Source: Vampirovibrionaceae bacterium NZW_1234
GTDB taxonomy: Bacteria > Cyanobacteriota > Vampirovibrionia > Vampirovibrionales > JAGQHJ01
Reading direction: 5' to 3'
DNA: 64,000 nt
Assembly (NCBI GenBank): GCA_041697335.1
Contig: JBGUGD010000023.1
Coordinates: forward strand, 96,001 to 160,000
Shown: piece after piece, positions 2,251-48,042 of the stretch
Layout of the letters: every line of letters begins with the position of its first letter
How positions within the stretch are numbered: the first letter of the stretch is position 1
Translations under genes and position numbers: made by a program
Notes under the pieces: generated by a model
Told to the model about the DNA's origin: nothing
The model's database searches: none
The model's input: the letters and a program-made list of their open reading frames with translations, nothing else

Positions 2251-2506
2251 TGTGATTCCAACTCAGATTAGACGGATATAGGAATGGCTCAATCTTATCA
2301 TGGGACCGGATCCCAGAACGAGGTCTCTGTTTCTCCAGGCTTTATCGGCGAAAATCCGGTCGCGTATTGGGACGTTTGTGTCTTGAACCCCGCTCAAACT
2401 CAACTGATGGGAGGGCCCGCTCGACGCAGGAAACACAGCCTTATCTCAATAGCACGCATTGTCCACTTCACCTCATCTTCGAGGAGAGTGGATGTTGGCA
2501 CAGGGC

Positions 2507-3745
2507 CTAGTTGAAGCTCATTTCGGTGCGGACCTGGTTGCGCTTGAGTTGGTTGGGGATGGGGGCGTAAGGCGCCGCATTTTCGATGGCTTGAACAACG
2601 GCCTGATCGATATCGGCATCCCCCGAAGATTGTTTGATCTGATAGCCCCGTAAATGGCCATCTTTATCCACGTTAAGGGATACCTTGACCCCATTGCCCA
2701 AGGATGCCGCAGGACGGATGAAATGGGTTTTTACCTTTTCATTGACGCCTTCCAGGTACTGTTCCTCATGGGGTGTGGATGAATTGATCTCAGGCTGACG
2801 GGTTGCAGCTTTTGCGCCACTGCCGTTTACCGTGTGGTTGTGCGAGTGCATGTGCCCCGTGGTGGCGGAGGCCACTTTGCGGCCTTGGGTGGTCACTGCG
2901 GCGTATAAATCCTGGCCACGCTGCCATTGGTTGCTGTACAACAGGCGAATAGCCTCAATGTCGTTGCGAGAAAGCTTGGCTTTGTAGTTGAAATATTCAT
3001 CCGCGGATTTCCAGTCGCGGCCGCTTCGCATAATGTCGTCATTATGCGGGCTGTGACCCGAGATGCCCAAGGCATGGCCGATCTCATGCATGATGTCGGC
3101 CTTGATAATCTGATCCGGCAGTTTGACGGTTTTAATCTCAATAGCCGCATGCCCGACGCTAAACGAGGTTTCGCCGGCCTGATCCTTGTCGGCAAACCCG
3201 GCTACCCAGCGGACGGTAATATTGGCATTGCCGGGGTTCTGTACCAATTCGTATTTCAATCGTCCACCCAGGGCGTTGGACCATTCATCCAGGCTTTCTT
3301 TCACAAATACCGGGTATTGTTTCTTGTAGAGCCGGGTTTCCTGGGGATGCGTTTCCACATACACCTTGAGGGGCTTGTTCAGCGTCCGGGTTAAATGAAA
3401 GGTGCGCACAGAGTCCCAGTTGGGATCAAAATCTTCCTGCAGGCTGCCGCTGGAATAGGTTTCCTCATCCTCGGCAGGGCGATAGGTGGGAACCATGCGA
3501 TTGTATTGCTGTAAAATCTCCTGGGCCGGTCGCTGATAGCTCTCTGCCGGTTGGGGCAGGCGACTGATGGCCAATTGCTGAATGGTATTCTTCGGGCCTT
3601 CATAGCGAATCAATCGGCTTGAGTTATGGGTAGAGCCGGTTTCATTCAACCAGTAAATCTTCTCGGCAAAAGCGGTTGGTATGGCAGATACTGCTAAATT
3701 TGCAAGCAGCAGCGCTGCAACCGCAACGCGTACGGCGCACTTCAC
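2507..3745 (-). CDS. Secreted matrixin-like (M10) zinc metalloprotease with C-terminal TonB_C/TolA-like domain
   Basis: Signal peptide AFA-E; HEIGHALGISGH zinc motif plus DIM Met-turn; C-terminal IKQSSGDADIDQAVVQAIENAAPY is typical of TonB_C/TolA. Confidence 0.85.
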   Translation of the reverse strand: MKCAVRVAVAALLLANLAVSAIPTAFAEKIYWLNETGSTHNSSRLIRYEGPKNTIQQLAISRLPQPAESYQRPAQEILQQYNRMVPTYRPAEDEETYSSGSLQEDFDPNWDSVRTFHLTRTLNKPLKVYVETHPQETRLYKKQYPVFVKESLDEWSNALGGRLKYELVQNPGNANITVRWVAGFADKDQAGETSFSVGHAAIEIKTVKLPDQIIKADIMHEIGHALGISGHSPHNDDIMRSGRDWKSADEYFNYKAKLSRNDIEAIRLLYSNQWQRGQDLYAAVTTQGRKVASATTGHMHSHNHTVNGSGAKAATRQPEINSSTPHEEQYLEGVNEKVKTHFIRPAASLGNGVKVSLNVDKDGHLRGYQIKQSSGDADIDQAVVQAIENAAPYAPIPNQLKRNQVRTEMSFN

Positions 3746-17632: not shown

Positions 17633-18190
17633 TTACTCAAGCATCAATTCCATTTCGAGGGTTATTGGGCAATTTTTAAACACCCGATTTTCGTCGAGGG
17701 TAACAAATCCAAGCTCCCGGTATAGGCGGGTGGCTGCTGTGAATTCCCGCAAGGTGGCCAGAAAGACTTTGCGATAACCCAGTGCTCTGGCTTTGGCAAT
17801 GAGTCCTTGGGTCAGCGCTCGTCCAAGTCCATGGCCGCGATAACGCGGGTGAAGATACAGTTTGACGATTTCGCCCAGAACCTCGTTCTGGTGATATTGG
17901 GGGTCGGCTTGTTTTAGAGCGGCTGATCCGACGATGTTCTGCTCTGAATCCTGAAGAATCCAGAAGCATCCTTGAGTTGGATTGAGGGCCGTTTCCAGTT
18001 CCGAATAAATATGTCCCTTCTTTTGGGCTTCCTCCACCAGCAGAGCGCCATGGGCAAATTCTCCCGGCAGGATCTCCGCCATTAAGTTCAACACCTTGGC
18101 TATGTCCGATTCGGCGCCATCTTTCAAGGTTAACCCCACGTTTTTTAAGTGCAGGGTGAGCGTGGAATCCGGCATGTGCACACGTCTCAT
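17633..18190 (-). CDS. GNAT N-acetyltransferase
   Basis: KLYLHPRYRGHGLGRAL acetyl-CoA motif A; ATRLYRELGF. Confidence 0.9.
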   Translation of the reverse strand: MRRVHMPDSTLTLHLKNVGLTLKDGAESDIAKVLNLMAEILPGEFAHGALLVEEAQKKGHIYSELETALNPTQGCFWILQDSEQNIVGSAALKQADPQYHQNEVLGEIVKLYLHPRYRGHGLGRALTQGLIAKARALGYRKVFLATLREFTAATRLYRELGFVTLDENRVFKNCPITLEMELMLE

Positions 18191-19328: not shown

Positions 19329-19958
19329 TTGGTGTTGGGTAATCTGAAGTTGCTGTTTCAGCCCAAACTGTTTTGGCTGGCCCTGGTGCTGATGTATGTC
19401 GTGCCTCAAGGCGCCAGTGCCGAGTCATCGGACATGCAAATTACGGAAGCCACCCACTATTTTCGTCGCCTGATGCTTGAATCCACCAACCCGGTCATTG
19501 CCACCATGGCCCAGTGGAGTCTGGATTATCTGCATCAAGACGACCATGCCAGAACGCTCAGGTCGGTTGAGATTCCATTGACCTCCTCCGGGAGTTCGGG
19601 CTTGATGGTGACTGCGCAAATCTCGGCCAAGAGCCAGCGGGTGCAACACGGCCAGTTTATGTTTGATACCGGCTCCACCTACTCGTTGATCACACCTCGG
19701 TTTGCGCGACAACTGGGTATTCAGATTACCTCCAACACTCCCCATCGCTTAATCTATACCGCCAACGGCAGTATGACTGTTCCCCTGGTCGAGCTGGACA
19801 ATGTCACTGTAGGGGCCTACCGAATCCCGAAACTCCAAGCTGTCATCAAAGACATCGGCGATAACGAAGGTTCCCTGGCGGGCCTATTCGGCATGAATGT
19901 CTTCCAAAACCACGATTTCTCCCTCCAAAAAAACAAGGTCATCGTGTATCTGAAATAG
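19329..19958 (+). CDS. Secreted retropepsin-like aspartic protease (clan AA)
   Basis: FMFDTGSTYSLI catalytic motif, TANG, GLFGMN; signal peptide; exact start uncertain. Confidence 0.85.
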   Translation: MVLGNLKLLFQPKLFWLALVLMYVVPQGASAESSDMQITEATHYFRRLMLESTNPVIATMAQWSLDYLHQDDHARTLRSVEIPLTSSGSSGLMVTAQISAKSQRVQHGQFMFDTGSTYSLITPRFARQLGIQITSNTPHRLIYTANGSMTVPLVELDNVTVGAYRIPKLQAVIKDIGDNEGSLAGLFGMNVFQNHDFSLQKNKVIVYLK

Positions 19959-25163: not shown

Positions 25164-26093
25164 TTAGTAAGCTCGCGGGGGAATGCCGTGGACCAGGAGA
25201 TCGATGATGCGGTCGCTGATGGGGTAGCCGGAGAGCTGCTCATCCAGGATGAACACGGGTGTGGGGTTGCCTTCGAAGAAGACGTATTCGCCCTCCGGGG
25301 TGCGGCGCAGGTCGATGCCGGTGAAGACCAGTTTAAGGACATCGGCCAGGCGTTTGCAGTCGGTCAGAACCTCGTCGGGGAGGGTGATGGGCACCCGCTT
25401 GGCTTCGTCGTCCTCTCGAAAGTCCAGGGTGGTGCTGTGGATCTCCATGGCAAACATCTCGTTGCCCACCAGGTAGGCTCGGATGTCCGTGCCGGGGATG
25501 AACTCCTGGAGCTTCACGGGTGAGTTGGCCAGGGTTTTGAGGCGCTCGGAGGTCAGGTCCTCGTCTTTTAAGAGGGTGGTGTGGGCCCAGCCTCGGACGG
25601 GTTTGAAGATGACCTGCTTGTTCAGGCGTTCGTAGAAGGCGATTAATTCGTCCGGGTCGTTGGTGATGAGGGTTTCGGGGACGCGGATGCCCGCCTGGTT
25701 GAGGAGTTGGAGCTGATAGCCCTTGTACTTGTGCATTTCCACCGACTCCCAGGGGTTGACCCAGGGGCAATCGAGGACCCGGCAGAAGCTGCCGATGGCC
25801 GATTCGATGTTCCAGTAGACGATTTCGTTGAGCATGGGGTCGTCTTCGTGGGGGGCGTTGACCCCTTTGGACCAGCGGCGGTAGACGCCCTGAATATCGG
25901 AGAAGGCCACCTTGGGTTCGGAGGGGGAGGCCTGGAAGAAGCCTTCGCATGGGCTTTCGGGTTTGTAGGATATCAAGGTCACCGTGGGATACTGGGTGGT
26001 ATCGAACATGGTGGTCTTGAGCCCCCGTTGATGCATTTTGGATTGCATGTAGACGGAGGGGTAATCATCCGGGGTGCCGACAATGAGAATCAT
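25164..26093 (-). CDS. ATP-grasp ligase, MdnC/MvdD-like graspetide synthetase (paralog 1)
   Basis: FDTTQYPT, WVNP, QL...AGIRVPETLITND, FKP, QEFIPG, IDLRRTPEGEYVFFEGNP. Confidence 0.85.
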   Translation of the reverse strand: MILIVGTPDDYPSVYMQSKMHQRGLKTTMFDTTQYPTVTLISYKPESPCEGFFQASPSEPKVAFSDIQGVYRRWSKGVNAPHEDDPMLNEIVYWNIESAIGSFCRVLDCPWVNPWESVEMHKYKGYQLQLLNQAGIRVPETLITNDPDELIAFYERLNKQVIFKPVRGWAHTTLLKDEDLTSERLKTLANSPVKLQEFIPGTDIRAYLVGNEMFAMEIHSTTLDFREDDEAKRVPITLPDEVLTDCKRLADVLKLVFTGIDLRRTPEGEYVFFEGNPTPVFILDEQLSGYPISDRIIDLLVHGIPPRAY

Positions 26094-26182: not shown

Positions 26183-26519
26183 TTGCTCATTTTTGCTCAG
26201 GGTGACTTTGTTTTTGGTTTTTTGCCTCGTTTTTACTCAAAAATTACTCAGGGATTGAGTTGTTTTTTACCCAAAATTACTCAGGGCTTGAGTTATTTTT
26301 GTTGTTTTTTACTCAAAATTACTCAGGGCTTGAGGTATTTTTGTTGTTTTTTACTCAGAATTACTCAGGAATTGAGGTTTTTTGTTGTTTTTACTCGAAA
26401 TTACTCAGGGAGGTGGGGTTTTTGGTTTGTTTTTTACTCAAATTGACTCAGGATGTTGATTTTTTTACTCAGTTTTACTCAGGTTGTTGTTTTGGTTCAG
26501 GGTTACTCACCGATACTCA
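26183..26519 (+). repeat. Array of about 9 paired TTACTCA direct repeats with T/G-rich linkers
   Basis: Pairs start at 26183 (TTGCTCA variant), 26233, 26267, 26309, 26351, 26391, 26434, 26465, 26503; 10-11 bp within pairs. Confidence 0.85.
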
Positions 26520-31815: not shown

Positions 31816-32883
31816 TTATTTTTGCATCATTCCCTGCAGATGGGCGATAAACTGGCTGATATTGCCATTGTCCAGGTGTTGGTACATGGTATTGGATTCC
31901 GAGTAGGTGTTCAGATCGGTCCAATTCATCTGACCCGCATAACCGCCGGGATTATGGTTACTCATATAGGTCGGGGTGCCTCCCAAGGCAATCTGGACGG
32001 TATTGATTAGTTGGCCAAAGGGACCCACGGAATCGAGGACGGCGGGTTGTACAATTTCGTGACCAAAGTTGGCCAATCCGGGCAGGGTTCCTGCGGCTTG
32101 CTCTTGCCAGGTTTGATGTGGGCCTGCTAATGCTGGCGCCAGAATATGATAGAGGTTTCCATTGGGATGGTGCTGTCCATCTGCAAATTGTGCCAAAATG
32201 CCAATGTCGGCAGGGTCAAAGTGTTGCTGCATATGCCCGAACAAGATAGGGGCTGCAATGCCGGAAAACACCTGGCCATTGCCCGGGCCATCGGGAATGA
32301 TATTGTGGAGTTCTTGCAGTACCATCAGAACATCCTGCCAGGTGTAGGGTCTGGGCTCATGACCCAGGACGTTGACGGCTAGAAACTGAAGCAGATAAGC
32401 CTGGATTTCCTGGGATGTGGCTGTTGCCGGTGGTCTGCTTGGGGTGACGTCTGATACATCGGCTTCTGGGCCGTTTTCTCCCAGCATTTGAGGAATGTTT
32501 TGAGGCGGTGGCGGGGGCGCTGGCGGGGGTTGTAAAACCGGTATCTTGATGGGAATCCCCGTTTGCTGCGAAATCAGACCCAATGTTCCCATGTTACTTA
32601 AGCCGGGTGTGATTCCATACTGAGGCAGCGGGTTCATGACGGTGGTATTGTTCAGATAAACCAGGGAGGTGAGGACGTCACTGGCCGTGTTCTGGGCAAA
32701 GTTGGTGACCGATTCAAAGGTGTCGACAGCGGCATTGTATGCCCCTGAGCCCACCTGGTAGATGGTGTTGACCGTTCCCAGGACCGTGCCTGCCGCCTGC
32801 TGAATGTTATTGAGGGTGTTCACGGCAGAGTCGATTGGGTTGGGAAAGTTACTGGGAATGGAAAAGAAATTGCCGAGTTCCAT
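31816..32883 (-). CDS. Hypothetical protein (Asn/Thr-rich N-terminus, poly-Pro linker, His-rich helical domain)
   Basis: 355 aa ORF; GGAG SD; shares the upstream motif with the precursor genes. Confidence 0.7.
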   Translation of the reverse strand: MELGNFFSIPSNFPNPIDSAVNTLNNIQQAAGTVLGTVNTIYQVGSGAYNAAVDTFESVTNFAQNTASDVLTSLVYLNNTTVMNPLPQYGITPGLSNMGTLGLISQQTGIPIKIPVLQPPPAPPPPPQNIPQMLGENGPEADVSDVTPSRPPATATSQEIQAYLLQFLAVNVLGHEPRPYTWQDVLMVLQELHNIIPDGPGNGQVFSGIAAPILFGHMQQHFDPADIGILAQFADGQHHPNGNLYHILAPALAGPHQTWQEQAAGTLPGLANFGHEIVQPAVLDSVGPFGQLINTVQIALGGTPTYMSNHNPGGYAGQMNWTDLNTYSESNTMYQHLDNGNISQFIAHLQGMMQK

Positions 32884-33051: not shown

Positions 33052-33139
33052 GGTTTACGTATTTAAAATTTAAATAAATTTACGTTAGAAATGGTTGCCC
33101 CCATCGGTTTCCAGTCAACAACAGCGTGGGGTCGTTTTT

Positions 33140-33178
33140 AAACGAAAACGCCGCCTTCTGAGTTGAAAGCGGCGTTTG
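33140..33178 (-). terminator. Intrinsic terminator after precursor 1
   Basis: Minus strand AAACGCCGCTTTC-loop-GAAGGCGGCGTTTT followed by further Ts. Confidence 0.7.
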
Positions 33179-33195
33179 TACGAAACAATCCTGGT

Positions 33196-33630
33196 TTAGG
33201 AAAAGGTTCTGTTGCCCTTGAGCAGGTTGAGCAGGACTTGAAGGCGTTGGAGTATCTGGGTGATGTCCATATTGCCTCCGGGCGGGCGGAAGCCGCCTTC
33301 CTGATCGCTGGGGAATTTTTCGGTCCCAACACCGCAGAACATGGGCGGACGTGTGCCGCCTTCCTGGTCGCTGGGGAACTTGAGCGTTTGGATGTCGCCA
33401 CCGATGGGGGGACGCGTGCCGCCTTCCTGATCGCTGGGGAATTTTAAGGTTTGAATGTCGCCACCGATGGGAGGACGTGTGCCGCCTTCCTGATCGCTGG
33501 GGAATTTGCGGGTTTGAACATCGCCACCGATGGGGGGACGCGTGCCGCCTTCCTGATCACTGGGGAATTTCATCGTGGTCGCAATGTTGCGACTTCCGAG
33601 GCTTGCATAATCTAAAAAATATCCCGACAT
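33196..33630 (-). CDS. Multi-core graspetide (microviridin/marinostatin-like) precursor 1, 144 aa, 5 cores TxKFPSDQEGG
   Basis: Start re-assigned to ATG 33630 by alignment with precursor 2 (MSGYFLDYA vs MSQYFFDYA); TxKxPSDxE cores. Confidence 0.85.
   Translation of the reverse strand: MSGYFLDYASLGSRNIATTMKFPSDQEGGTRPPIGGDVQTRKFPSDQEGGTRPPIGGDIQTLKFPSDQEGGTRPPIGGDIQTLKFPSDQEGGTRPPMFCGVGTEKFPSDQEGGFRPPGGNMDITQILQRLQVLLNLLKGNRTFS
33292..33576 (-). repeat. Five 63 bp coding tandem repeats
   Basis: Exact 63 bp period; the invariant FPSDQEGG residues differ only at synonymous positions (AGC/AGT, GAT/GAC, TTC). Confidence 0.9.
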
Positions 33631-33670
33631 GAAAACCGTCCTATCTGAACACCACAAAAATATCTATATA

Positions 33671-33701
33671 TATATAAACAATTTATTTCAGGATTAATTG
33701 C
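33671..33701 (-). promoter_or_regulatory. GCAAT-N18-TTTATATA motif, copy 2
   Basis: tatataaa 33671-33678 and attgc 33697-33701; 40 nt upstream of the start codon. Confidence 0.65.
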
Positions 33702-33872
33702 CACGAAACGCCCAAAGGTAACGTTTTGTAACACCATTAGGCATCATGGTCAGTCCTCACGATTCGGTGTGTTCACCTTGGGGTATCTCCATCTGAGGGT
33801 GTGATCGCCGGTGTCTGGCAAGCTCTGGACGCGGTTAGCCAGAATACATACTGAGTGTGACCCGTAACAAGC

Positions 33873-34406
33873 TTACGAATTGGCTCTGAAATTCTGCAAA
33901 AGCAGCATCAGAACAAGAATTCGCTGGAAGGATAGGCCCGAGGAATTGTTGTTTCCCGGTGGGCGTATGCCGCTTTCATCGTCACTGGGAGCTTTCATGG
34001 TGAGGCTTATCTTGTCGATGGGTGGGTGCATCCCTCCTGGCGGACGGATGCCGCTTTCATCATCGCTGGGAGCCTTCATGGTGAAGCTAATCTTGTCGAT
34101 GGGTGGGTGCATCCCTCCTGGCGGGCGATAGCCGCTTTCATCATCGCTGGGGGCCTTCATGGTGAGATTGATATAGTCAAAGGGAGGGCGATAGCCGCTT
34201 TCATCATCACTGGGGGCTTTCATGGTGTATGCCAAAGCATCGTTAGGAGGACGATAGCCACTTTCATCATCACTGGGGGCTTTCATGGTATAGGCCAAAG
34301 CATCGTTGGGGGGACGATAGCCGCTTTCATCATCGCTGGGGGCTTTCATGGTGTACCCGATATTTCGGGGAGCCGACTGGGCATAGTCAAAGAAATATTG
34401 AGACAC
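33873..34406 (-). CDS. Multi-core graspetide precursor 2, 177 aa, 6 cores TMKAPSDDESG
   Basis: AGGAG SD plus GTG; six identical cores; adjacent ATP-grasp ligase. Confidence 0.88.
   Translation of the reverse strand: MSQYFFDYAQSAPRNIGYTMKAPSDDESGYRPPNDALAYTMKAPSDDESGYRPPNDALAYTMKAPSDDESGYRPPFDYINLTMKAPSDDESGYRPPGGMHPPIDKISFTMKAPSDDESGIRPPGGMHPPIDKISLTMKAPSDDESGIRPPGNNNSSGLSFQRILVLMLLLQNFRANS
33969..34352 (-). repeat. Six coding repeats (63 bp spacing x3, then 81 bp x2)
   Basis: In-frame periods; synonymous variation in the core codons. Confidence 0.9.
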
Positions 34407-34446
34407 TAACTCTCTCCTAACATGGATGTGGTTATTTAATCATATT

Positions 34447-34477
34447 TATATAAAAAAATAATATTTCTACCAATTGC
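34447..34477 (-). promoter_or_regulatory. GCAAT-N18-TTTATATA motif, copy 3
   Basis: tatataaa 34447-34454 and attgc 34473-34477; 40 nt upstream of the start codon, the same spacing as copy 2. Confidence 0.65.
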
Positions 34478-34605
34478 CTGAAGTCGTCCTCATGTAAACT
34501 TTTGTGTAAAAGAGCGCAGTGCCTGAGAAACCTGGAGCTGCTGTGCTTTATGCCCAGGAAATCGGTGAGATTATTTAAGCTCTGAAGCCTGCAGAGACAA
34601 AGGGT

Positions 34606-35514
34606 CTATGAACCGCCTCTGACCAAGGTGTCCGCCAGGCAATCGCTGATTTTAAGGCCGCTGCGGTCTTCGTAGATCATGAACAAGGGGCTGGGGTTGG
34701 CCTCGAAGAAAACGTACTCGTCGTCCGGGGTACGACGCAGGTCGATTCCGGTGAGCCTGAGACCCAGGGTCCTGGCCAGGCGGCGGCACTGGTCTTCTAC
34801 GGAAGCGGGAAGGGCTGCCGGAAGAATCCGCATGGCTTGATCGGTTTTGTAATGCTCGGTGTCCGTATGGACTTCCGTGATGAACAACTCGTCCTCGATA
34901 ACATGGACCCGGATATCCACGCCGGGAATAAATTCCTGGCACTGGACCGGCAAGGCGGAGAGTCGACTGAGGGCGTCGGGGGCCATATCCTGGTCCGTAA
35001 GCTTATGGGCAATGGCACTCCCGGCCAGGGGTTTGACGATGGCATGTCGTTGGTGGGCTTCGTAAAAGGCAACCAGCTTTTCCGGATCGTTGGTGATCAG
35101 GGTCTCAGGGACGCGAAAACCAGCAGACTTCAGTATCGAGAGCTGATGTGGCTTGAACCGGTGCAGTTCGATGGCGGTGGCGGGGTTGACCCAGTAGGTG
35201 TCCAGATTGCGCCACAGGCTGCCGAGGGCGGCTTCCAGCTCCTGCTGAACAAAGAATCGATAAGCGACATCCTGGTGAGAGGGGAGAGACAGCCCTTCAT
35301 AGCAATACCAATACACGGCGTCGATATCTGAAAAGGGGATGCGGTTGGGCAATTCTGGTGTTTGAATCCATCCCTCCCCGGCTTCGGTAAAGCTGATTCG
35401 GGTCTGGGTCGGGAACGTGCGGGTATCGAAGCAGACAACCTGCTTCCCTCGGGCTTCGATTTTCTGTCGAACCCGATCGGAATGAATATCTGAGGAGCCA
35501 AGAATGAGTATCAC
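34606..35514 (-). CDS. ATP-grasp ligase, MdnC/MvdD-like graspetide synthetase (paralog 2)
   Basis: FDTRTFPT (cf. MdnC FDTDRFPT), WVNP, VPETLITND, VKP, QEFIPG, IDLRRTPDDEYVFFEANP; directly upstream of the precursors. Confidence 0.88.
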   Translation of the reverse strand: MILILGSSDIHSDRVRQKIEARGKQVVCFDTRTFPTQTRISFTEAGEGWIQTPELPNRIPFSDIDAVYWYCYEGLSLPSHQDVAYRFFVQQELEAALGSLWRNLDTYWVNPATAIELHRFKPHQLSILKSAGFRVPETLITNDPEKLVAFYEAHQRHAIVKPLAGSAIAHKLTDQDMAPDALSRLSALPVQCQEFIPGVDIRVHVIEDELFITEVHTDTEHYKTDQAMRILPAALPASVEDQCRRLARTLGLRLTGIDLRRTPDDEYVFFEANPSPLFMIYEDRSGLKISDCLADTLVRGGS

Positions 35515-35601: not shown

Positions 35602-36084
35602 TTAATCGGGTTGCTCTAAAATATGCTTGCGGGTGTAGTGGACCCCCGCCCCTACGCCGGTGCCAATGGCTGCCGCAGGAAGGATACCTGTACCTGCGGT
35701 AATGGCCGCACCGGCACCAATGGCTGTTCCTTTAAGGGCACGTCGGGCCAGGGGCTTGTCTCTCAGTAATTCACTTTTGTCCATCAGGCCAACCCCCGCT
35801 CCGGTGGCTGCACCGACCAGCCCTCCTTTAAGCAAGGATTTGCCGGTCAGAGCACCGACACCAACGCCGGCAGCGGTGCCAATGGCGGAGCTTCGGACAA
35901 CCGGATTGCGCCAGGCATTTTGAATGCGGTCTTTGGCGGTTGGTTTTTGGACGTAAACGTAGCGCCGGGCACTGGCATCATACACCCGTTCGTAACTGGG
36001 ATTGGCCCAGGCCGGGGCAGCGGAGGCCATCACCAAGACCATGGCCATGGATGCAGCCCAAAAACGTGCAAGATTCGATTTCAT
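35602..36084 (-). CDS. Secreted glycine-zipper protein
   Basis: Signal peptide AWA-N; repeated GxxxGxxxG; GGAGG SD; TGCTAGGAT extended -10 at 36135-36143. Confidence 0.75.
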   Translation of the reverse strand: MKSNLARFWAASMAMVLVMASAAPAWANPSYERVYDASARRYVYVQKPTAKDRIQNAWRNPVVRSSAIGTAAGVGVGALTGKSLLKGGLVGAATGAGVGLMDKSELLRDKPLARRALKGTAIGAGAAITAGTGILPAAAIGTGVGAGVHYTRKHILEQPD

Positions 36085-36241
36085 CAGGGAACCCTCCATT
36101 GCAGGAACCTAATCGGCTTATACCAACAGCATTTATCCTAGCAGTTGACCCTGTCAGCACACACTAGTCTCTGGTCTTACTACCGGTACTATTTTTGAGA
36201 GACGATGGCTGAGCCTGGATGTTCCCGGGAGGTGTATGGGG

Positions 36242-38326
36242 TCAGGCCGGTTTTTGTGTGTCCGCTTTTCTGCTGGCCAGCGTCTTTTCCCACAGGGCAC
36301 GCCAGTCGGCGACGCCTGAGGTTTGGAACATCTCCCGAATGGCCACGGGATCGTTCATGGTTTCTTCCTGTTCGATACGGGCGATGATTTTTTCCCGGGC
36401 TTCGGGGGGAATGGCCTTGATGAAGGCCACAGTGGTTTCATACAGTTGGCTTAACAGGTCGTTGCGGACGGACTCGCCTTTTTCCTTCAATGCCGGAGAG
36501 ACATCGCTGTGGGCAAAAGGATTGTCCGAGGGAGGGATGATGACCTGGCCGAAGCGCTCCGGGTAGAGGGCCGAGGTTTCGATAGCCTCTTTCATCAACT
36601 GGTTCACCTTGGCCCAGTCGTTGGAGGCCCCGGAGGAGACGTTGTCCTTACCATAGAGGGCTTCTTCGGCGGCGCGGCCTCCCATGATCATGCAGGCCAT
36701 CTTCTCCACAAACTGACGGGTCTGGTGGTACTTGGGCATGCCTTCGGGATCGGTGCCCATAATGCCCAGGGCCGTGCCACCACCTTCCATGTTTCGGGGG
36801 ACTACGGTCAGGAACTGGACGGGTAAGCCCAGGGCCCACGCCACGGCCGCATGGCCCAGGGTTTCATGGACCGCGACCCGGCGTTTGTCCTCCGGGGTAA
36901 AGGCTACGTCCTTTTTGGGCAGGCCCAGGTAGATTCGCTCGATAGCATCCAGAAAATCCTGGCGCTCGATAGCGGTCTTGTCCCGGCGCCGTGCCAGGAG
37001 AGCGGCCTCGTTGGCGATTTTTTCGATTTCGGCCCCGCTGGTTCCCGGCCACATGCGTCGGGCAATGAAAAGGGAATCCACATCGTCGGCGACTTTCTTG
37101 TTGCGCAAGTGGACGTTGAGAATATCCCGGCGTCCTTCCGGGGTCATCGGCGGTGTGACGGTGTATTTCTTATCGAAGCGCCCGGGACGGACCAGGGCCT
37201 TGTCCAGGGTCTCGGCCCGGTTGGTGGCGGCGATGACCAGGACGTCATCGGTGGCGTTAAAGCCGTCCATCTCCGAGAGGATGGCGTTGAGGGTCTGCTC
37301 GCGCTCGTCGTGTCCGCCCACGCCGGGACCGGCACCGCCGCGCTTTTTCCCAATGGCGTCGATTTCGTCGATAAAGATGACCGAGGGGGCATGTTTTCGG
37401 GCCGTGGCAAACAGATCCCGGACACGGCGAGCGCCCATCCCGACGAAGAGTTCCACGAAGTCGGATCCGCTAAGGCTAAAGAAGGGTCGATTTAACTCAC
37501 CGGCGATGGCCTTTGCCAACAGGGTCTTACCGGTTCCGGGCGGGCCTTCCAAGAGGATGCCACTGGGTAAGCGCTCTCCAACTCGGCTTTCGCGATCGTT
37601 AAAGAGATTGAGGATGTCGGCCCGGATTTCATGCACGACTTCAGGGATGCCTGCGACATGATCCAGGGTGACCTTGGGGGCGTTGGCGTTGGTAGTATGG
37701 CTTTGGAGGGCGCTAAAGCCACCCCGGCCAGCCATGCCGCTCATCATGCGATAGGCCAGGTACCCGATCAGGGCCAGCGGGAGAAGTTGTATGGCCAGCA
37801 TCAGGAAAATCGCACCCACCTGGCTTTCGTCTTTAACCTGCGGGTGAAGTCCTTTTTCCCGCATGGATTGAACCAGTTCGGTATAGCCGGGTTGTTGTGG
37901 GTTGGGCACAAAATGCTGGACGTTCTTGTTGTCGAGAATTACCCGCCATTCGATGGCGGTTTTACCGGCCTGGATTTCGATGGCCTTCACCCGCCCGGCC
38001 TGGATCTGCTGCATGAGCTCCTGGGGTGTGGCGATGAGGAGGCCGTTCGCATCGGGGATGGTTTCGCCGGGTTGGACCGGGGCGGTTAGCTGCGGGTTTG
38101 GCTTTTGAGGGGCCAGGGCGGAATAGCCCATGTATGCGGCAAGGCCCAGGGTGAGATACAGGAGCAGTTTGTTTCGTCGGGGGGGCTGTTTCTGCGGGGA
38201 TGCGGTTCCGAAACGAAGCAAATCGTCAGTCCGATGATGGTGTGCGTTGGCCAACGGTCGCTCGGGAACGTGTCCGATAGACAGCGCCGTCCGATGGGCA
38301 GGCACCCCCAGAAGTGGTGTCACCAT
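36242..38326 (-). CDS. ftsH: FtsH-family AAA+ zinc metalloprotease (divergent paralog)
   Basis: Two TMs, GPPGTGKT, IDEIDA, SRH (AATNR...LDKALVRPGRFD), HETLGH, GASND. Confidence 0.9.
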   Translation of the reverse strand: MVTPLLGVPAHRTALSIGHVPERPLANAHHHRTDDLLRFGTASPQKQPPRRNKLLLYLTLGLAAYMGYSALAPQKPNPQLTAPVQPGETIPDANGLLIATPQELMQQIQAGRVKAIEIQAGKTAIEWRVILDNKNVQHFVPNPQQPGYTELVQSMREKGLHPQVKDESQVGAIFLMLAIQLLPLALIGYLAYRMMSGMAGRGGFSALQSHTTNANAPKVTLDHVAGIPEVVHEIRADILNLFNDRESRVGERLPSGILLEGPPGTGKTLLAKAIAGELNRPFFSLSGSDFVELFVGMGARRVRDLFATARKHAPSVIFIDEIDAIGKKRGGAGPGVGGHDEREQTLNAILSEMDGFNATDDVLVIAATNRAETLDKALVRPGRFDKKYTVTPPMTPEGRRDILNVHLRNKKVADDVDSLFIARRMWPGTSGAEIEKIANEAALLARRRDKTAIERQDFLDAIERIYLGLPKKDVAFTPEDKRRVAVHETLGHAAVAWALGLPVQFLTVVPRNMEGGGTALGIMGTDPEGMPKYHQTRQFVEKMACMIMGGRAAEEALYGKDNVSSGASNDWAKVNQLMKEAIETSALYPERFGQVIIPPSDNPFAHSDVSPALKEKGESVRNDLLSQLYETTVAFIKAIPPEAREKIIARIEQEETMNDPVAIREMFQTSGVADWRALWEKTLASRKADTQKPA

Positions 38327-38480: not shown

Positions 38481-39776
38481 TTAATACCCGTAGTTGTAAT
38501 CAATGGGCTGCTCTTCATGGAGGCGAAGCAGGACGGTTTTCTGCTTGAGTCCGGCCAGGGCAGGGACGGTGCTGGTATCCCAGGCCAGAAGATTGTCGCC
38601 ATAGATGAGGTTATTGGGGCCAAAGTGCTGATATCCGGCCTGAGTCAATTCCGTGGATTTGCTCTGGGCCGGGTGGATGCCGGGAACCTTTGACAGGGCT
38701 TGCTGTAAGTCCGCCAGTGGCGGGCAGTTTTCGTTGTAATGCAGAACCAGGTGCTTGGGGTAGCGTTTGGCTCTGGGGAAAGGAGTATCCTGGCTGACAG
38801 CAGGGGTGGGCAAGCCAGCCGTTTTCAGCTGCTGGATGAATTCGTGGTGGATCTGCTGATCTTCGGGCGTGAATATAGGACGATTCGAAGTATTTACAAT
38901 GGGAACCAGCATATAGCGCGAAAACTGCGGCTGATGGGTCAGTCCCGGGAGTTTCGTCAGATCCAGGGCGTAGTAGTTCTTGGGGTACTTGCCCTTGCGC
39001 TTGTAATCGGCGTAGCCGGGGACCTTATCCAGATCGGCGGCGACGGTATTGGCTGATACAAGCTCCGGGAGTCGTCGTAGGGCTTTTTTGATGTCCTTGG
39101 GGGTGGCGTGGCCGTATTCCGTGGGGTAGGCGTAGGAAATGAGCATGTCCCACAATAAGGGATGAGGGGCTTTTGGCGAGTTGTGCCCGCTAAGACTGAC
39201 GGCAGCTATGCCGTTTTTAATGCCGGTGGCTTTCATAAATCGACGACGCAGGATTTTTTCCGCCTGCTGATGGTATTCCAGTTCGCTGTAATCCACATAG
39301 TGCAGTTTTACCAGGACGGTTTTCTGAGACGTCCCGGGGAAATAGCTGTGCGGGAGTTTCGTTATGTCCAGCGCGTATTCGTTGGGGCCGAATTTTCCTG
39401 TCTGGGGATCGCCGGGGTATCCTGCGGCATGGAGCTGGGCTTCGGCTGCGGAGGCCGGTTGCAGTTGGGGAAGATGCTGTTGGATGTGTTGTGCCGCTTG
39501 TTGATGGAACTGCGGTACGGACTTGCCGAAGTTGGAGACCACCAGAATGGCGCGTCCCGGAGACAGGTTCTGGGGGTATTGGATGCATGCCTGGAGATGG
39601 AGCGGGTTCTTAGGCGCCTGGGCCAGAAGGCGATTTAACCCGTCCATGGCGGATCCGATTTGGCCTGCCGTGAGCGGTGGCGGTGGCGTCTGAGGGGCGT
39701 GTGAACCGAAGCGCGTCGAGGCGGTCACTGTCGTTGTACGGGGACGTGTGGGGGACATGGAGCCATTAATGCGCAT
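38481..39776 (-). CDS. Hypothetical protein with three internal domain repeats and an N-terminal RFG extension
   Basis: GGAGG SD; TGCTAGGAT at 39813-39821; repeated GY...YALD(I/L)TKLP...VLVxL. Confidence 0.75.
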   Translation of the reverse strand: MRINGSMSPTRPRTTTVTASTRFGSHAPQTPPPPLTAGQIGSAMDGLNRLLAQAPKNPLHLQACIQYPQNLSPGRAILVVSNFGKSVPQFHQQAAQHIQQHLPQLQPASAAEAQLHAAGYPGDPQTGKFGPNEYALDITKLPHSYFPGTSQKTVLVKLHYVDYSELEYHQQAEKILRRRFMKATGIKNGIAAVSLSGHNSPKAPHPLLWDMLISYAYPTEYGHATPKDIKKALRRLPELVSANTVAADLDKVPGYADYKRKGKYPKNYYALDLTKLPGLTHQPQFSRYMLVPIVNTSNRPIFTPEDQQIHHEFIQQLKTAGLPTPAVSQDTPFPRAKRYPKHLVLHYNENCPPLADLQQALSKVPGIHPAQSKSTELTQAGYQHFGPNNLIYGDNLLAWDTSTVPALAGLKQKTVLLRLHEEQPIDYNYGY

Positions 39777-40024
39777 TTGAATTTTCCTCCCTCAGATGAG
39801 ACCTTGCCGCACATCCTAGCATAAAAAAGTTTGTTTTATTCAATTTCGATGCCGTTTTTCTCACCGACAAGAGAATCTAAATTGTTCCTTAAATCCGCTG
39901 CAAATTTGTCACAAGAGATTCAAGAGTTGTTTTTATATCTTTAAGAAATGGGCTTAGGCAATGTTCTCAGTAAAGACGATTGTCTTCGTTTTCGGGCTTG
40001 GGTAATGAAGGAGTTTGTAGCGGT

Positions 40025-40453
40025 ATGACATATGCGGTTCAACCTCGGGGTAGCGTTCTCTGTGGTGCTTACACGGCTTCGAATCTGGCAAAGGAACTGG
40101 GCAAGAATATTTCGCCCGAGCAGGCACGAATGTCAGGCTTTGAACCGGATCGGCCTGCCGGTATTGGTCCGAATGCGGTTGAACCTGGATTGGAACGCAT
40201 GGGGCTGGATGCTGAACGCCAGCCTTCGGCACAAAGTTCGTATAACAATCTGAAAAACGGGGGCAAGGAATTCTTCGCCGTCATGCAACGGGATCCGCAA
40301 ACGGGGCAGGTCTTTGGCCATGCGGTTGCCGGGAAAGGTGTCGACAGCCAAGGAAATGTCGTCTACGTGGATCCGATCGACGGGCAAGAACATCGGGAAC
40401 GTCCTGAAGAATTTTATGGCCGGACGATGGGCGCTTGGAGCGTCACGGCATAA
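40025..40453 (+). CDS. Stand-alone papain-fold cysteine peptidase (C39-like)
   Basis: AAGGAG SD before ATG 40025; Q-x6-CG, GHAV, VYVDP give a Gln/Cys/His/Asp arrangement. Confidence 0.7.
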   Translation: MTYAVQPRGSVLCGAYTASNLAKELGKNISPEQARMSGFEPDRPAGIGPNAVEPGLERMGLDAERQPSAQSSYNNLKNGGKEFFAVMQRDPQTGQVFGHAVAGKGVDSQGNVVYVDPIDGQEHRERPEEFYGRTMGAWSVTA

Positions 40454-46570: not shown

Positions 46571-47887
46571 TTACTCCCCTCGAGCCGGGCCAGGATTGGC
46601 AATGGTGTCCGGGAGGATCTCCGTTCTGAGGGAGACGGCATCCAGCTGGCCGTTACGAAGGATTTGAAAATTAATGGTGGCATTAACCGGTTGGGAGCGG
46701 ATAAAGTCCTGGATTTCCTTGGGACTTCTCACGGCCTTGCCGTTCATACGCTGAATGACATCGCCCTGCTGAAACCCGGCACGAAAAGACGGGCTGTCGG
46801 GCATGACCTGGGCTACAACAACCCCGTTGGTCGTTTCAGGTAGGCCAAGACTCTTGGCCAAGTCCGGTTTCAGCTCGGCCATGCTGATCCCAATCCAGGG
46901 CCGAGTGATTTTGCCTTGGGTGATCAATTCATTGGTGATCTTCTTGACCGAGTCAATGGGAATGGCAAAGCCAATGTTTTGGCCTGTTCCGGCAATGGCG
47001 GTGTTGATCCCAATGATTTCGCCTTTGAGGTTCACCAACGGGCCGCCGGAATTGCCCGGGTTAATGGCGGCATCGGTCTGGATGAAATCGACGTTTGCAT
47101 TAATGTCGGGAACCTGACGAGACAGCGCACTGACAATCCCCAGGGTGACGGTATGATCAAAGCCCAAGGGTGAGCCGACTGCGATGACCCAGTCTCCGGG
47201 GCGAAGGATTGAACTGTTTCCCATAACTGCCGGACGCAGGCCGCTTGCACCATCCATCTTCAACACGGCAATATCCGTCATCGGATCGCGGCCAACGACT
47301 TTGGCGTTGAACTTTCGTCCATCATTGAGTGTAATGATGATCTCATTGGCCCCTTGGACCACGTGGTTATTGGTCAGCACATAGCCATCGGGACTGATGA
47401 TGACCCCGGAACCGTTTCCACGAAGTACGGGCATCCGCTGCGGAACGCCTTGAAAAGGAACCATGTTACCCCCGAAGAAGCGTTCAAAAAATTCCGGACC
47501 AAAGGGCGTTACTGCAGCAGCCGGGTTTGCCGTTTTTTTAATGTCAATATTCACGACACTGGGAGCAATGTCCTGAGCCACATCGGCGATAATGCTGGAA
47601 GAACTGGAAAAGAGTGAATGCTCAGCGGAGCGGTTGACCAATTGAATGGGAGAACGCTCAGGCGCAGAACCTAAAAGTTGTACAGAATGAGTTTGCTGGG
47701 AAGGCACGCCGAGAGAACCCAACGTAAGGACTAATGCGGTAGAAGCCACCAAGAAGGCACTTGCCGAGAGCAAAACCGGGGCGGATAACTTGGATTTTGC
47801 TTTGACAGTCGGTAGCATGGGCTCCTCAGCGTTTGGAGATTGCTCAAGACCAGTACTCGTATGCGGATCCATCGTGTGCTTATCCAT
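46571..47887 (-). CDS. htrA: HtrA/DegP serine protease with one PDZ domain
   Basis: TNNHVV, DIAV, IQTDAAINPGNSGGPL; start at MDKH after AAGGAG. Confidence 0.92.
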   Translation of the reverse strand: MDKHTMDPHTSTGLEQSPNAEEPMLPTVKAKSKLSAPVLLSASAFLVASTALVLTLGSLGVPSQQTHSVQLLGSAPERSPIQLVNRSAEHSLFSSSSSIIADVAQDIAPSVVNIDIKKTANPAAAVTPFGPEFFERFFGGNMVPFQGVPQRMPVLRGNGSGVIISPDGYVLTNNHVVQGANEIIITLNDGRKFNAKVVGRDPMTDIAVLKMDGASGLRPAVMGNSSILRPGDWVIAVGSPLGFDHTVTLGIVSALSRQVPDINANVDFIQTDAAINPGNSGGPLVNLKGEIIGINTAIAGTGQNIGFAIPIDSVKKITNELITQGKITRPWIGISMAELKPDLAKSLGLPETTNGVVVAQVMPDSPSFRAGFQQGDVIQRMNGKAVRSPKEIQDFIRSQPVNATINFQILRNGQLDAVSLRTEILPDTIANPGPARGE

Positions 47888-48042
47888 AGGGTGCAGTGCT
47901 CCTTCAACAAACAGCGTTTTCATTTTTCACATTCAGTGTAATGCAAAGAGGAAAAGGGTCAAGCCGAGTTCTCAGATGTCTTGAGATTCCGACAGACTTA
48001 CGGTATAAAGATGACTATCATCAAAGGAAGAAGTTCCCATTC

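Follow-up and report, generated by a model that had tools for sequence, protein, structure and literature searches.

Microviridins and marinostatin are potent, tunable serine-protease inhibitors, and their biosynthetic logic, with a leader, a core and one ligase each for the ester and the amide links, is the textbook case of a graspetide (omega-ester peptide), a class of peptide made on the ribosome and modified after translation (RiPP). Ester formation is ascribed to MvdD/MdnC and amide formation to MvdC/MdnB; the Thr4-Asp10 ring is reported to frame the reactive loop, and position 5, the P1 residue in the microviridin J-trypsin structure, to set specificity (PMC7823629). Marinostatin is presented in the same source as the MdnB-less bicyclic form, with a PFFARFL leader, phylogenetically derived from the microviridins (PMC7823629). 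Published precedents include class II multi-core microviridin precursors, marinostatin-type clusters that lack MdnB, and microviridin variants with several ligases (PMC7823629, PMC5934393, PMC12848669). Plesiocin, of graspetide group 2, is reported to have the core motif TTxxxxEE and the leader motif LFIEDL with a key Phe, and structure 7DRM is that of its macrocyclase PsnB (bioRxiv 10.1101/2021.03.09.434688). Here we describe a 64,000-nt stretch of DNA from Vampirovibrionaceae bacterium NZW_1234 (contig JBGUGD010000023.1, positions 96,001 to 160,000; the window), in which an ATP-grasp ligase gene stands beside two precursors carrying microviridin-like cores that lack the acid at position 13 (acid-13).

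We lean towards the view that this locus is part of a dispersed graspetide system comprising two paralogous ATP-grasp macrocyclases and three multi-core precursors. It is a rare variant of a known natural-product class, and a genome-mining lead with a testable enzymology hypothesis rather than a categorically new system: the same inhibitor loop is carried on another leader and served by another branch of ATP-grasp ligases, and across relatives the number of ligases follows that of the possible rings. If correct, this view would provide a naturally occurring group of enzymes, each responsible for one defined ring, together with a natural library made up of the 23 cores of this genome, which vary mainly at P1; it would also offer a view of core-motif change within one RiPP scaffold and a first natural-product lead for the non-photosynthetic relatives of cyanobacteria. 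That the host is such a relative, as proposed in the preliminary description of this DNA, agrees with the lack of any Photo_RC or PsaA/PsaB match in the 94.75%-complete genome and with a protein that is identical to the ligase of a genome of the same order and is named 'Candidatus Melainabacteria bacterium'. A full-text literature search for Melainabacteria with graspetide or microviridin returned no report of such clusters, the microviridin results being judged by title and the start of the abstract; supplements of the group-defining graspetide papers may list them.

Precursors and their cores

The preliminary description had read an ATP-grasp gene followed by two co-oriented precursors with six TMKAPSDDESG and five TxKFPSDQEGG cores, each running into xRPP, and the list of open reading frames (ORFs) confirmed this arrangement: a 302-aa ATP-grasp ORF (ligase 1), a 177-aa ORF (precursor A) and a 153-aa ORF (containing precursor B) form a co-oriented trio on the minus strand (Table 1). 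Precursor A, with AGGAGAG 5 nt upstream of its start codon, contains six identical TMKAPSDDESG cores followed by YRPP (four times) or IRPP (twice), and ends in a hydrophobic helix, LSFQRILVLMLLLQNF. Precursor B, whose likely start has AGGA about 10 nt upstream, contains five T[M,R,L,L,E]KFPSDQEGG cores followed by TRPP (four times) or FRPP (once), and its C-terminal helix is ITQILQRLQVLLNLL. At the DNA level, Tandem Repeats Finder detected arrays with periods of 63/126 and 63/81 and with 83-92% matches. When repeats were compared as 15-codon units, the differing codon pairs of precursor A were synonymous in 71 cases and non-synonymous in 8 (225 pairs compared), and those of precursor B in 35 and 13 cases, respectively (150 pairs), the non-synonymous changes of the latter falling at core positions 5 and 15. 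The synonymous variation between repeats noted earlier is borne out by these counts, and the cores of both precursors are under purifying selection.

Both precursors passed the NCBIfam model NF033738 (microviridin/marinostatin RiPP; cut-off 26), with 50.9 bits for precursor A and 70.9 bits for precursor B. The search against Pfam Inhibitor_I10 (PF12559; cut-off 21), which the preliminary description had suggested, gave a divided result, as precursor B passed with 57.5 bits but precursor A failed with 19.4 bits. The two models align to the core only and not to the leader (model positions 30-44/46 and 46-62/63). We found Thr4, Lys6, Pro8, Ser9, Asp10 and Glu12 in 11/11 window cores, and position 13 occupied by Ser in all six cores of precursor A and by Gly in all five of precursor B, in agreement with the claim that every core keeps Thr4, Lys6, Ser9, Asp10 and Glu12 and has no Glu13. 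The proposal of a multi-core, microviridin/marinostatin-like graspetide locus without acid-13 holds, as judged by the family matches.

A genome-wide search revealed that the window also encodes a second, paralogous ligase (ligase 2) at a distance of 8.5 kb from the precursors, and that contig C28 of the same genome carries a third, 12-core precursor; no ligase of this kind was found in this genome beyond the two. A pattern search of genome contigs with ligase 1 gave 31 matches, none of which was confirmed. The C28 precursor starts with MAYFLDYA, has cores mostly of the form T.KYPSDQE[TG]G..PP and scored 113.6 bits on NF033738. This genome holds two ligases, three precursors and 23 cores (6 + 5 + 12). 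Core position 5 is M six times in precursor A, M,R,L,L,E in precursor B and M,K,Q,M,D,R,L,K,R,L,R,L in the C28 precursor.

Directly 3' of precursor B lies a terminator-like hairpin (-25 kcal/mol, z = -5.17 in strand folding), to which none of 200 shuffled sequences was equal in stability; it is absent from the output of a consensus terminator scan. Since this strong hairpin is followed by a U-rich tail, the 355-aa ORF downstream, which has no Pfam match, appears to be transcribed as a unit of its own. Short contig fragments from four DNA sequencing runs match the window except for one 3-base variant in the repeat region; these fragments may derive from the source sample and are not independent support. 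Among the sequencing runs listed, none of RNA carried this DNA.

A Leu/Gln-rich hydrophobic helix like those of precursors A and B (e.g., ILVLMLLLQNF or ILQRLQVLLNLL) closes most precursors of this lineage. It lies in the middle of the protein in G164 and G122 and is missing in G029, and it was also seen in multi-core precursors of the TTxxxxEE type and in some of the PFFARYL type (P0121, P0122 and P0124).

Ligases and their nearest described counterparts

Ligase 1 contains the MvdD pre-ATP-grasp domain (PF21068, 36.5 bits; cut-off 27) and matches the Pfam RimK ATP-grasp model with 27.3 bits. It aligned over its full length with TIGR04187, TIGR04184 and TIGR04185 (E values of 1e-32 to 1e-44), at scores that all remained below the cut-offs: 152.3 bits for TIGR04187 (cut-off 350), 114.9 bits for MvdD (475) and 111.6 bits for MvdC (425). 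Because the pre-ATP-grasp domain is combined with full-length maturase matches far below their cut-offs, we take ligase 1 to be a graspetide maturase that is not an MvdC/MvdD equivalog. Ligase 2 shares 44% identity with ligase 1 across 303 aa (E 1e-87) and scored 23.9 bits on PF21068 (below the cut-off), 132.8 bits on TIGR04187, 121.7 bits on MvdC and 109.4 bits on MvdD. On the MvdC model TIGR04185, bona fide MvdC proteins of photosynthetic cyanobacteria (Cyanobacteriia) reached 454-550 bits and their adjacent paralogues 282-313 bits, as compared with 111 and 121 bits for the ligases of this genome. Among solved structures searched with phmmer, PsnB (7DRM) was closest to both enzymes, with 132.5 bits for ligase 1 (MdnC (5IG9) 85.2, CdnC 68.2, MdnB (5IG8) 62.3) and 103.8 bits for ligase 2 (AMdnB 75.1, MdnB 72.7, MdnC 62.0). 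In a maximum-likelihood tree of 70 rows (LG+G4), the Vampirovibrionia-type ligases formed one clade on a long branch with 100/100 support, apart from the MvdD and MvdC clades. Within it, ligase 1 fell in clade X (98/92), sub-clade X1 (96/93), and ligase 2 in clade Y (100/100), which includes the ligases flanking PSD-type precursors in G029, G122, G185, G191, G149 and G078.

We considered whether the repeat ORFs could be proline-rich repetitive proteins and the ATP-grasp enzyme could do other work, such as RimK-like glutamylation. RimK family models do match the ligases weakly, and the RiPP identity of the locus is read from sequence. However, the RimK family model gave 67 bits on ligase 1 as against 112-152 bits for the RiPP-maturase models, which outscore it by more than 80 bits, and the excess of synonymous changes in the cores, the precursor family matches above cut-off and the conservation of the ligase-precursor neighbourhood across 8 genera all argue against this explanation, which we consider very improbable. 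The alternative grouping of the ligases with RimK, LysX or glutathione synthetase, raised in the preliminary description, finds no backing in these scores.

Also hardly tenable is the view that sequence drift explains the oddities of an otherwise ordinary microviridin cluster of class II, belonging to graspetide group 1 and having orthologues of MdnC and MdnB. The T.K.PSD.E core of the locus passes NF033738, that of precursor B also PF12559, and precursors with 3-15 cores are common among the database relatives. Like the class II microviridins (AMdnA/AMdnC of Anabaena PCC 7120), the locus combines one leader with tandem TxKxPSDxE cores and Gly-rich spacers, for which a distributive ATP-grasp ligase would be expected (PMC5934393, PMC7823629). 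Unlike in those systems, all window cores lack acid-13, the linkers are of the GxxPP type, a hydrophobic helix closes the precursors, and we found no PFFARFL leader, no MdnB/MdnC orthologue, no C39/ABC transporter and no adjacent GNAT gene. The preliminary description had considered MvdC/MvdD-type ligases, and this did not survive the profile search and the tree, where both enzymes scored 109-122 bits against cut-offs of 425/475 and fell outside both clades at 100/100. Searches of 5.8 billion proteins returned 38 database relatives of the precursors, with up to 15 cores each; 36 of them have acid-13 in all or nearly all cores, and a leader of the form PF[FW]xx[FYL]L is present in 31. The two exceptions without acid-13, P0125 and P0132, resemble the present locus, and the leader of P0132 reads YFVNYA. 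The window type is a rare, coherent subtype with cores lacking acid-13, a leader other than PFFARFL and ligases other than MdnB/C, and the reading as an ordinary microviridin cluster appears already contradicted by the ligase scores, the tree and the leader.

Some of the database relatives show features of their own. In P0125 and P0132, which are metagenomic and type-i-like (type i is defined below), T.K[FY]PSDNETG cores are interleaved with [IV]xKIK[AQ]D[DN]E[TR]G units, which have no Thr/Ser nucleophile and could represent an all-lactam core type. In P0140-P0145 (460-517 aa), PFFARFL is preceded by an N-terminal helical domain of some 150 aa and followed by 15 canonical cores, well above the up to five cores quoted for class II precursors (PMC7823629).

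The resemblance to plesiocin extends beyond the PsnB scores. Other sub-clades of the ligase clade adjoin multi-core precursors with TT[LQ]A[VL]GEEGGG units, which match TTxxxxEE (e.g., in G110, G130, G161, G179, G074, G094 and G041), and for one such TTxxxxEE-associated ligase PsnB was again the closest solved structure, with 156.2 bits. These cores stand beside clade-mate ligases in other genomes of the class and not in this genome. The TTxxxxEE precursors share the scaffold of the window precursors, with an N-terminal [SMY]F[IVL]N[FY][AG] leader that resembles plesiocin LFIEDL, EEGGG..PP or GG-x-x-PP linkers and, often, an LLQ-rich tail helix. By eye, YFFDYA and YFLDYA also share an x-F-hydrophobic-acid pattern with the reported plesiocin leader LFIEDL, and both systems have multi-core precursors. 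Given the shared leader, linkers, tail helix and ligase clade, leader, scaffold and enzyme family all appear plesiocin-like here, with microviridin-like cores. In contrast to plesiocin, the cores are T.K.PSD.E instead of TTxxxxEE, the expected rings would be crossed as in microviridin and not a nested hairpin, and two ligases are implicated where plesiocin needs one. Common descent, core replacement and convergence could each account for the resemblance between the plesiocin and microviridin features.

The sister group of the PSD-associated Y ligases adjoins a precursor with eleven TTQAFPENGGG cores, whose single acid lies at i+6 from the first Thr. At this locus (L028 of G004, minus strand, about 2380-3410), a 344-aa frame convergent with the Y-sister ligase contains the 11 identical cores and the variants APGENG[SG]G and TMRDPENGGG; the core looks intermediate between the TTxxxxEE and PSD types.

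Core types, ligase complement and candidate cross-links

Homologues of ligase 1 (E <= 1e-20) were found in 54/301 sampled genomes of the class and were concentrated in the host order (2/4 genomes of family f1, 11/19 of f2 and 18/25 of f3), and PSD-type multi-core precursors were found in 9/49 genomes and 8/30 genera of the order. A weak precursor match outside the order (G284, E 0.005) was rejected as spurious, as no PSD-type ORF was seen there on inspection. G152 has a shortened Y ligase (238 aa) and no match to precursor B at E 0.01 or 0.001. Relatives have in common a leader of the form [YF][FLIM]x[DNQ][YF]A.

The cores of these nine genomes (87 in total, 36 of them type i) fall into three types. 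Type i, T.K[FYA]PSD[QDN]E[TSG]G..PP without acid-13, occurs in this genome (G000), G182, G185 and G191; type ii, T.K[AYF]PSD.E[DE]GG with acid-13, in G078, G149 and G164; and type iii, T.[R/x][FY]PSDD[GP].G without Lys6 and Glu12, in G029 and G122. We found that the ligase complement tracks the core type in 9/9 genomes, with Y alone in type iii, X1 and Y in type i, and X2a, X2b and Y in type ii. Two or more of the three families are represented for each core type, and the association of core and ligases is thus not one inherited block. The type-ii ligases lie in tandem beside the precursor in G078 and G149, and in G164 the X2 and Y ligases are on contigs other than those of the precursors.

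Three relatives have X1, Y and the precursor at a single locus. In G185 as in G191, one contig ends with an X1 ligase and then the start of a precursor, and another contig opens with the end of a precursor followed by a Y ligase. In G182, one X1 gene is split over two contig ends, with Y 2 kb away on one side and an 8-core type-i precursor on the other. This linkage is the main reason why we count ligase 2 as part of the system. The preliminary description had seen no adjacent MdnB-type ligase, acetyltransferase or ABC transporter; indeed none adjoins the locus, but the paralogous ligase 8.5 kb away had not been connected with it. As relatives place two ligases around cores without acid-13, the absence of an adjacent MdnB does not mean a single-enzyme pathway.

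Thr4, Pro8, Ser9 and Asp10 are invariant in type-i cores and, apart from rare Ser4 and Thr9, across all three types (Ser9 in 84/87 cores). Among the 36 type-i cores, Lys6 and Glu12 are each present in 34, position 13 is T15, S12, G7, A1 and V1, and position 11 is Q15, D11 and N10 and varies even inside one precursor. Since D, N and Q are interchangeable at position 11, an obligatory cross-link through the additional Asp of the DDE cores is unlikely, which weakens the new tricyclic topology once suggested for these cores. Of positions 4-14, which make up the core proper, position 5 (M9 L8 R6 K5 E2 T2 A2 Q1 D1) varies most, so that the genome would encode inhibitors with a range of specificities.

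We propose that each ligase would dock on the N-terminal leader [Y/F]F[F/L]DYA, a putative counterpart of plesiocin LFIEDL and microviridin PFFARFL, and that both would act distributively along the repeats. Together they would install two cross-links per core, Thr4-Asp10 and either Ser9-Glu12 or Lys6-Glu12. Because Thr4, Pro8, Ser9 and Asp10 are invariant in all types and Y is the sole ligase in type iii, Y most likely makes the Thr4-Asp10 ester, the ring that would be common to all core variants including the Y-only ones; the single i+6 acid of TTQAFPENGGG fits a Thr-acid(i+6) ring for Y. X ligases co-occur with Lys6 and Glu12, and the second X paralogue with acid-13. X1 would make a second cross-link that needs Glu12, most likely the Ser9-Glu12 ester, to give a marinostatin-like bicycle in which Lys6 stays free. 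Four type-ii cores lack Lys6; two of them also lack acid-13 yet keep Glu12 (TLAFPSDAETGG and TERYPSDNETG), and the other two have lost Glu12 as well, a pattern that would fit a canonical Lys6-acid-13 lactam together with a Ser9-Glu12 ester. The products would be canonical-loop serine-protease inhibitors with P1 at core position 5. The cores may stay joined as polyvalent inhibitors, like plesiocin, in view of the Gly-x-x-Pro-Pro linkers and the lack of a dedicated peptidase or exporter at the locus, and the Arg-Pro-Pro linkers would be expected to resist trypsin-like cleavage. A precedent for paralogous ligases that divide the work on a TxKxPSDx(D/E)(D/E) core is described for the myxomiditides, a microviridin subclass with four cooperating ATP-grasp ligases; these differ in having N-terminal KxxE lactams, a canonical tricyclic core and microviridin-type ligases, as compared with the fewer links and other ligase lineage here (PMC12848669).

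One alternative is that X1 joins Lys6 to Glu12 as a lactam while Y makes the Thr4-Asp10 ester and Ser9 stays free, which would be a bicyclic ester/amide form not known from microviridin or marinostatin. Lys6 and Glu12 appear together with X ligases, and Y-only cores have neither. Position 6 is Lys in 34/36 type-i cores and in 7/7 cores of P0125 and P0132, never Arg, with AAA and AAG both in use as synonymous codons. Lys6 is missing from only two type-i cores (TMAYPSDQDAG and TKAYPSDDGVQ of the C28 precursor), and both are also changed at position 12; two such cores are, however, too few for covariation. Moreover, Ser9, which pairs with the position-12 acid in microviridin and marinostatin as described (PMC7823629), is kept in 36/36 type-i cores and nearly throughout the other types, and the two Lys-less type-ii cores that keep Glu12 must have a partner for it other than Lys6. 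We consider this lactam rather unlikely, though a serious contender to the Ser9-Glu12 ester that we prefer for X1.

Another possibility is that ligase 1 alone installs both esters, as MdnC does, in a single-ligase, marinostatin-like pathway, and that ligase 2 serves another substrate. It is ligase 1 alone that adjoins the precursors; MdnC/AMdnC are reported to make both lactones, with MdnB-less clusters being considered normal and marinostatin-like (PMC7823629, PMC5934393), and PsnB to make two rings alone (bioRxiv 10.1101/2021.03.09.434688). The locus is indeed similar to marinostatin in its Thr-x-basic-aromatic-Pro-Ser-Asp core pattern, in the presence of the ester residues Thr4, Asp10, Ser9 and Glu12, in the absence of acid-13 for a Lys lactam, which leaves at most two links (Asp10 and the position-12 acid), and in a presumed role as canonical-loop serine-protease inhibitor. 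The G029 cores start with TMRYPSD, which we take to be the start of the marinostatin core. Unlike marinostatin, the present system has an [Y/F]F[F/L]DYA leader, ligases outside the MvdC/MvdD clades, a retained Lys6, 5-12 cores per precursor and two implicated ligases. Cores without acid-13 are flanked by or near both X1 and Y in G185, G191 and G182, no other precursor adjoins ligase 2 in a genome with only two such ligases, and the number of ligases rises with that of the possible links in 9/9 genomes. Taken together, these data make a single-ligase pathway distinctly unlikely, and we prefer the division of labour between X1 and Y.

Several observations weigh against the dispersed two-ligase system that we favour. 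A two-component block of three genes (PAS histidine kinase, response regulator and hybrid kinase) separates ligase 2 from the precursors; no precursor-like ORF adjoins ligase 2, and a consensus scan for promoter-like sites at the locus found none. Ligase 2 scored slightly better on amide-ligase models (MvdC, and AMdnB/MdnB as compared with MdnC), an uneasy fit with an ester role. The plesiocin lineage of the ligases is suggested by phmmer scores and neighbouring precursors, PsnB itself not being among the rows of the tree. The nine genomes are related to one another, and in the several that are fragmented drafts, ligases or precursors may be missed. The cross-links, their order and their assignment to ligases are likewise deduced from sequence patterns. 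Finally, Arg never replaces Lys6 in type-i cores, though it is common in the Lys-less type iii; such strict retention is unexpected for a free Lys and favours the Lys6-Glu12 lactam.

A broader reading, which we offer tentatively and would sooner doubt than accept, is that Vampirovibrionia hold a graded series linking plesiocin-type and microviridin-type graspetides on one scaffold and ligase lineage, with one ring per enzyme. The series would run through TTxAVGEEGGG, TTQAFPENGGG, T.RYPSDDGPG, T.K.PSD.E[STG]G and T.K.PSD.EDGG. Its PSD branch would pay for each added cross-link with one added paralogous ligase (Y, X1, X2a/X2b), unlike MdnC or PsnB, and the X1 step could be the Lys6-Glu12 lactam, in which case an ester/amide bicycle not yet described could be present here.

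Neighbourhood of the ligases and precursors

Table 1. Positions of the features in the window.
Feature	Position	Strand	Remarks
Precursor A	33873..34406	-	177 aa, GTG start, leader MSQYFFDYA
Tail helix of precursor A	33873-33940
Precursor B	33196..33630	-	144 aa from likely start ATG 33630, leader MSGYFLDYA
ORF containing precursor B	33196..33657	-	153 aa
Tail helix of precursor B	33196-33270
Terminator-like hairpin	33139..33179	-	directly 3' of precursor B; 13-15 bp stem, 6-nt loop, U-rich tract after
Ligase 1 (X1 type), ATP-grasp ribosomal-peptide maturase	34606..35514	-	302 aa
Ligase 2 (Y type), ATP-grasp peptide maturase paralogue	25164..26093	-	309 aa; putative member of the same system
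42-bp tandem array	26230-26493
Pfam-less protein	31816-32883	-	355 aa, Pro-rich middle
Gly-zipper protein and FtsH-like protease	35602-38326	-	directly upstream of ligase 1
Pfam-less protein	38481-39776	-	431 aa
C39-like match	39980-40453
HtrA/DegP-like trypsin-PDZ protease	46571-47923	-	11 kb from ligase 1
Retropepsin-like aspartyl protease	19329-19958	+	5 kb from ligase 2
Generic GNAT	17633..18190		16 kb away

Adjoining the locus we found no GNAT gene, no ABC/C39 transporter and no further ligase. Among the 31 ORFs between 10 and 52 kb in the window, a Pfam scan detected no ABC transporter; a C39-like match was weak and sub-threshold (19 bits; cut-off 24), and the only GNAT gene noted is generic and distant. 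When 10 window neighbours were compared by BLASTP with the ORFs of the relatives' loci, a weak histidine-kinase match alone was obtained. Near these loci no peptidase or exporter is conserved, and none dedicated to the system can be proposed.

Two proteins are encoded upstream of ligase 1: a membrane protein of the Gly-zipper type (YMGG-like), and a 694-aa FtsH-like AAA+/M41 protease whose long N-terminal region is non-canonical. Neither is conserved beside the relatives' loci. The two Pfam-less proteins that flank the locus have no homologue in the relatives' loci. There is no evidence that the HtrA/DegP-like or the retropepsin-like protease is linked to the system.

The C28 precursor (L058:5469-11977) has genes for a sigma-70 factor and a type IV prepilin peptidase (A24) upstream, and for a Pfam-less 241-aa membrane-like protein and a radical SAM/SPASM enzyme downstream; none of these neighbours fits a known graspetide accessory family. 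The radical SAM/SPASM gene, 1.25 kb downstream of the precursor, was not counted as part of the system, its best RiPP-family match of 48.7 bits lying below the cut-off of 170.

The 790-bp gap upstream of ligase 2, between this gene and that of the PAS histidine kinase, contains a tandem array of about 4.7 copies of a 42-bp unit, the consensus of which includes ACTCAAAATTACTCAGGG. The array, which could serve in regulation, contains no open frame on the strand of the ligase.

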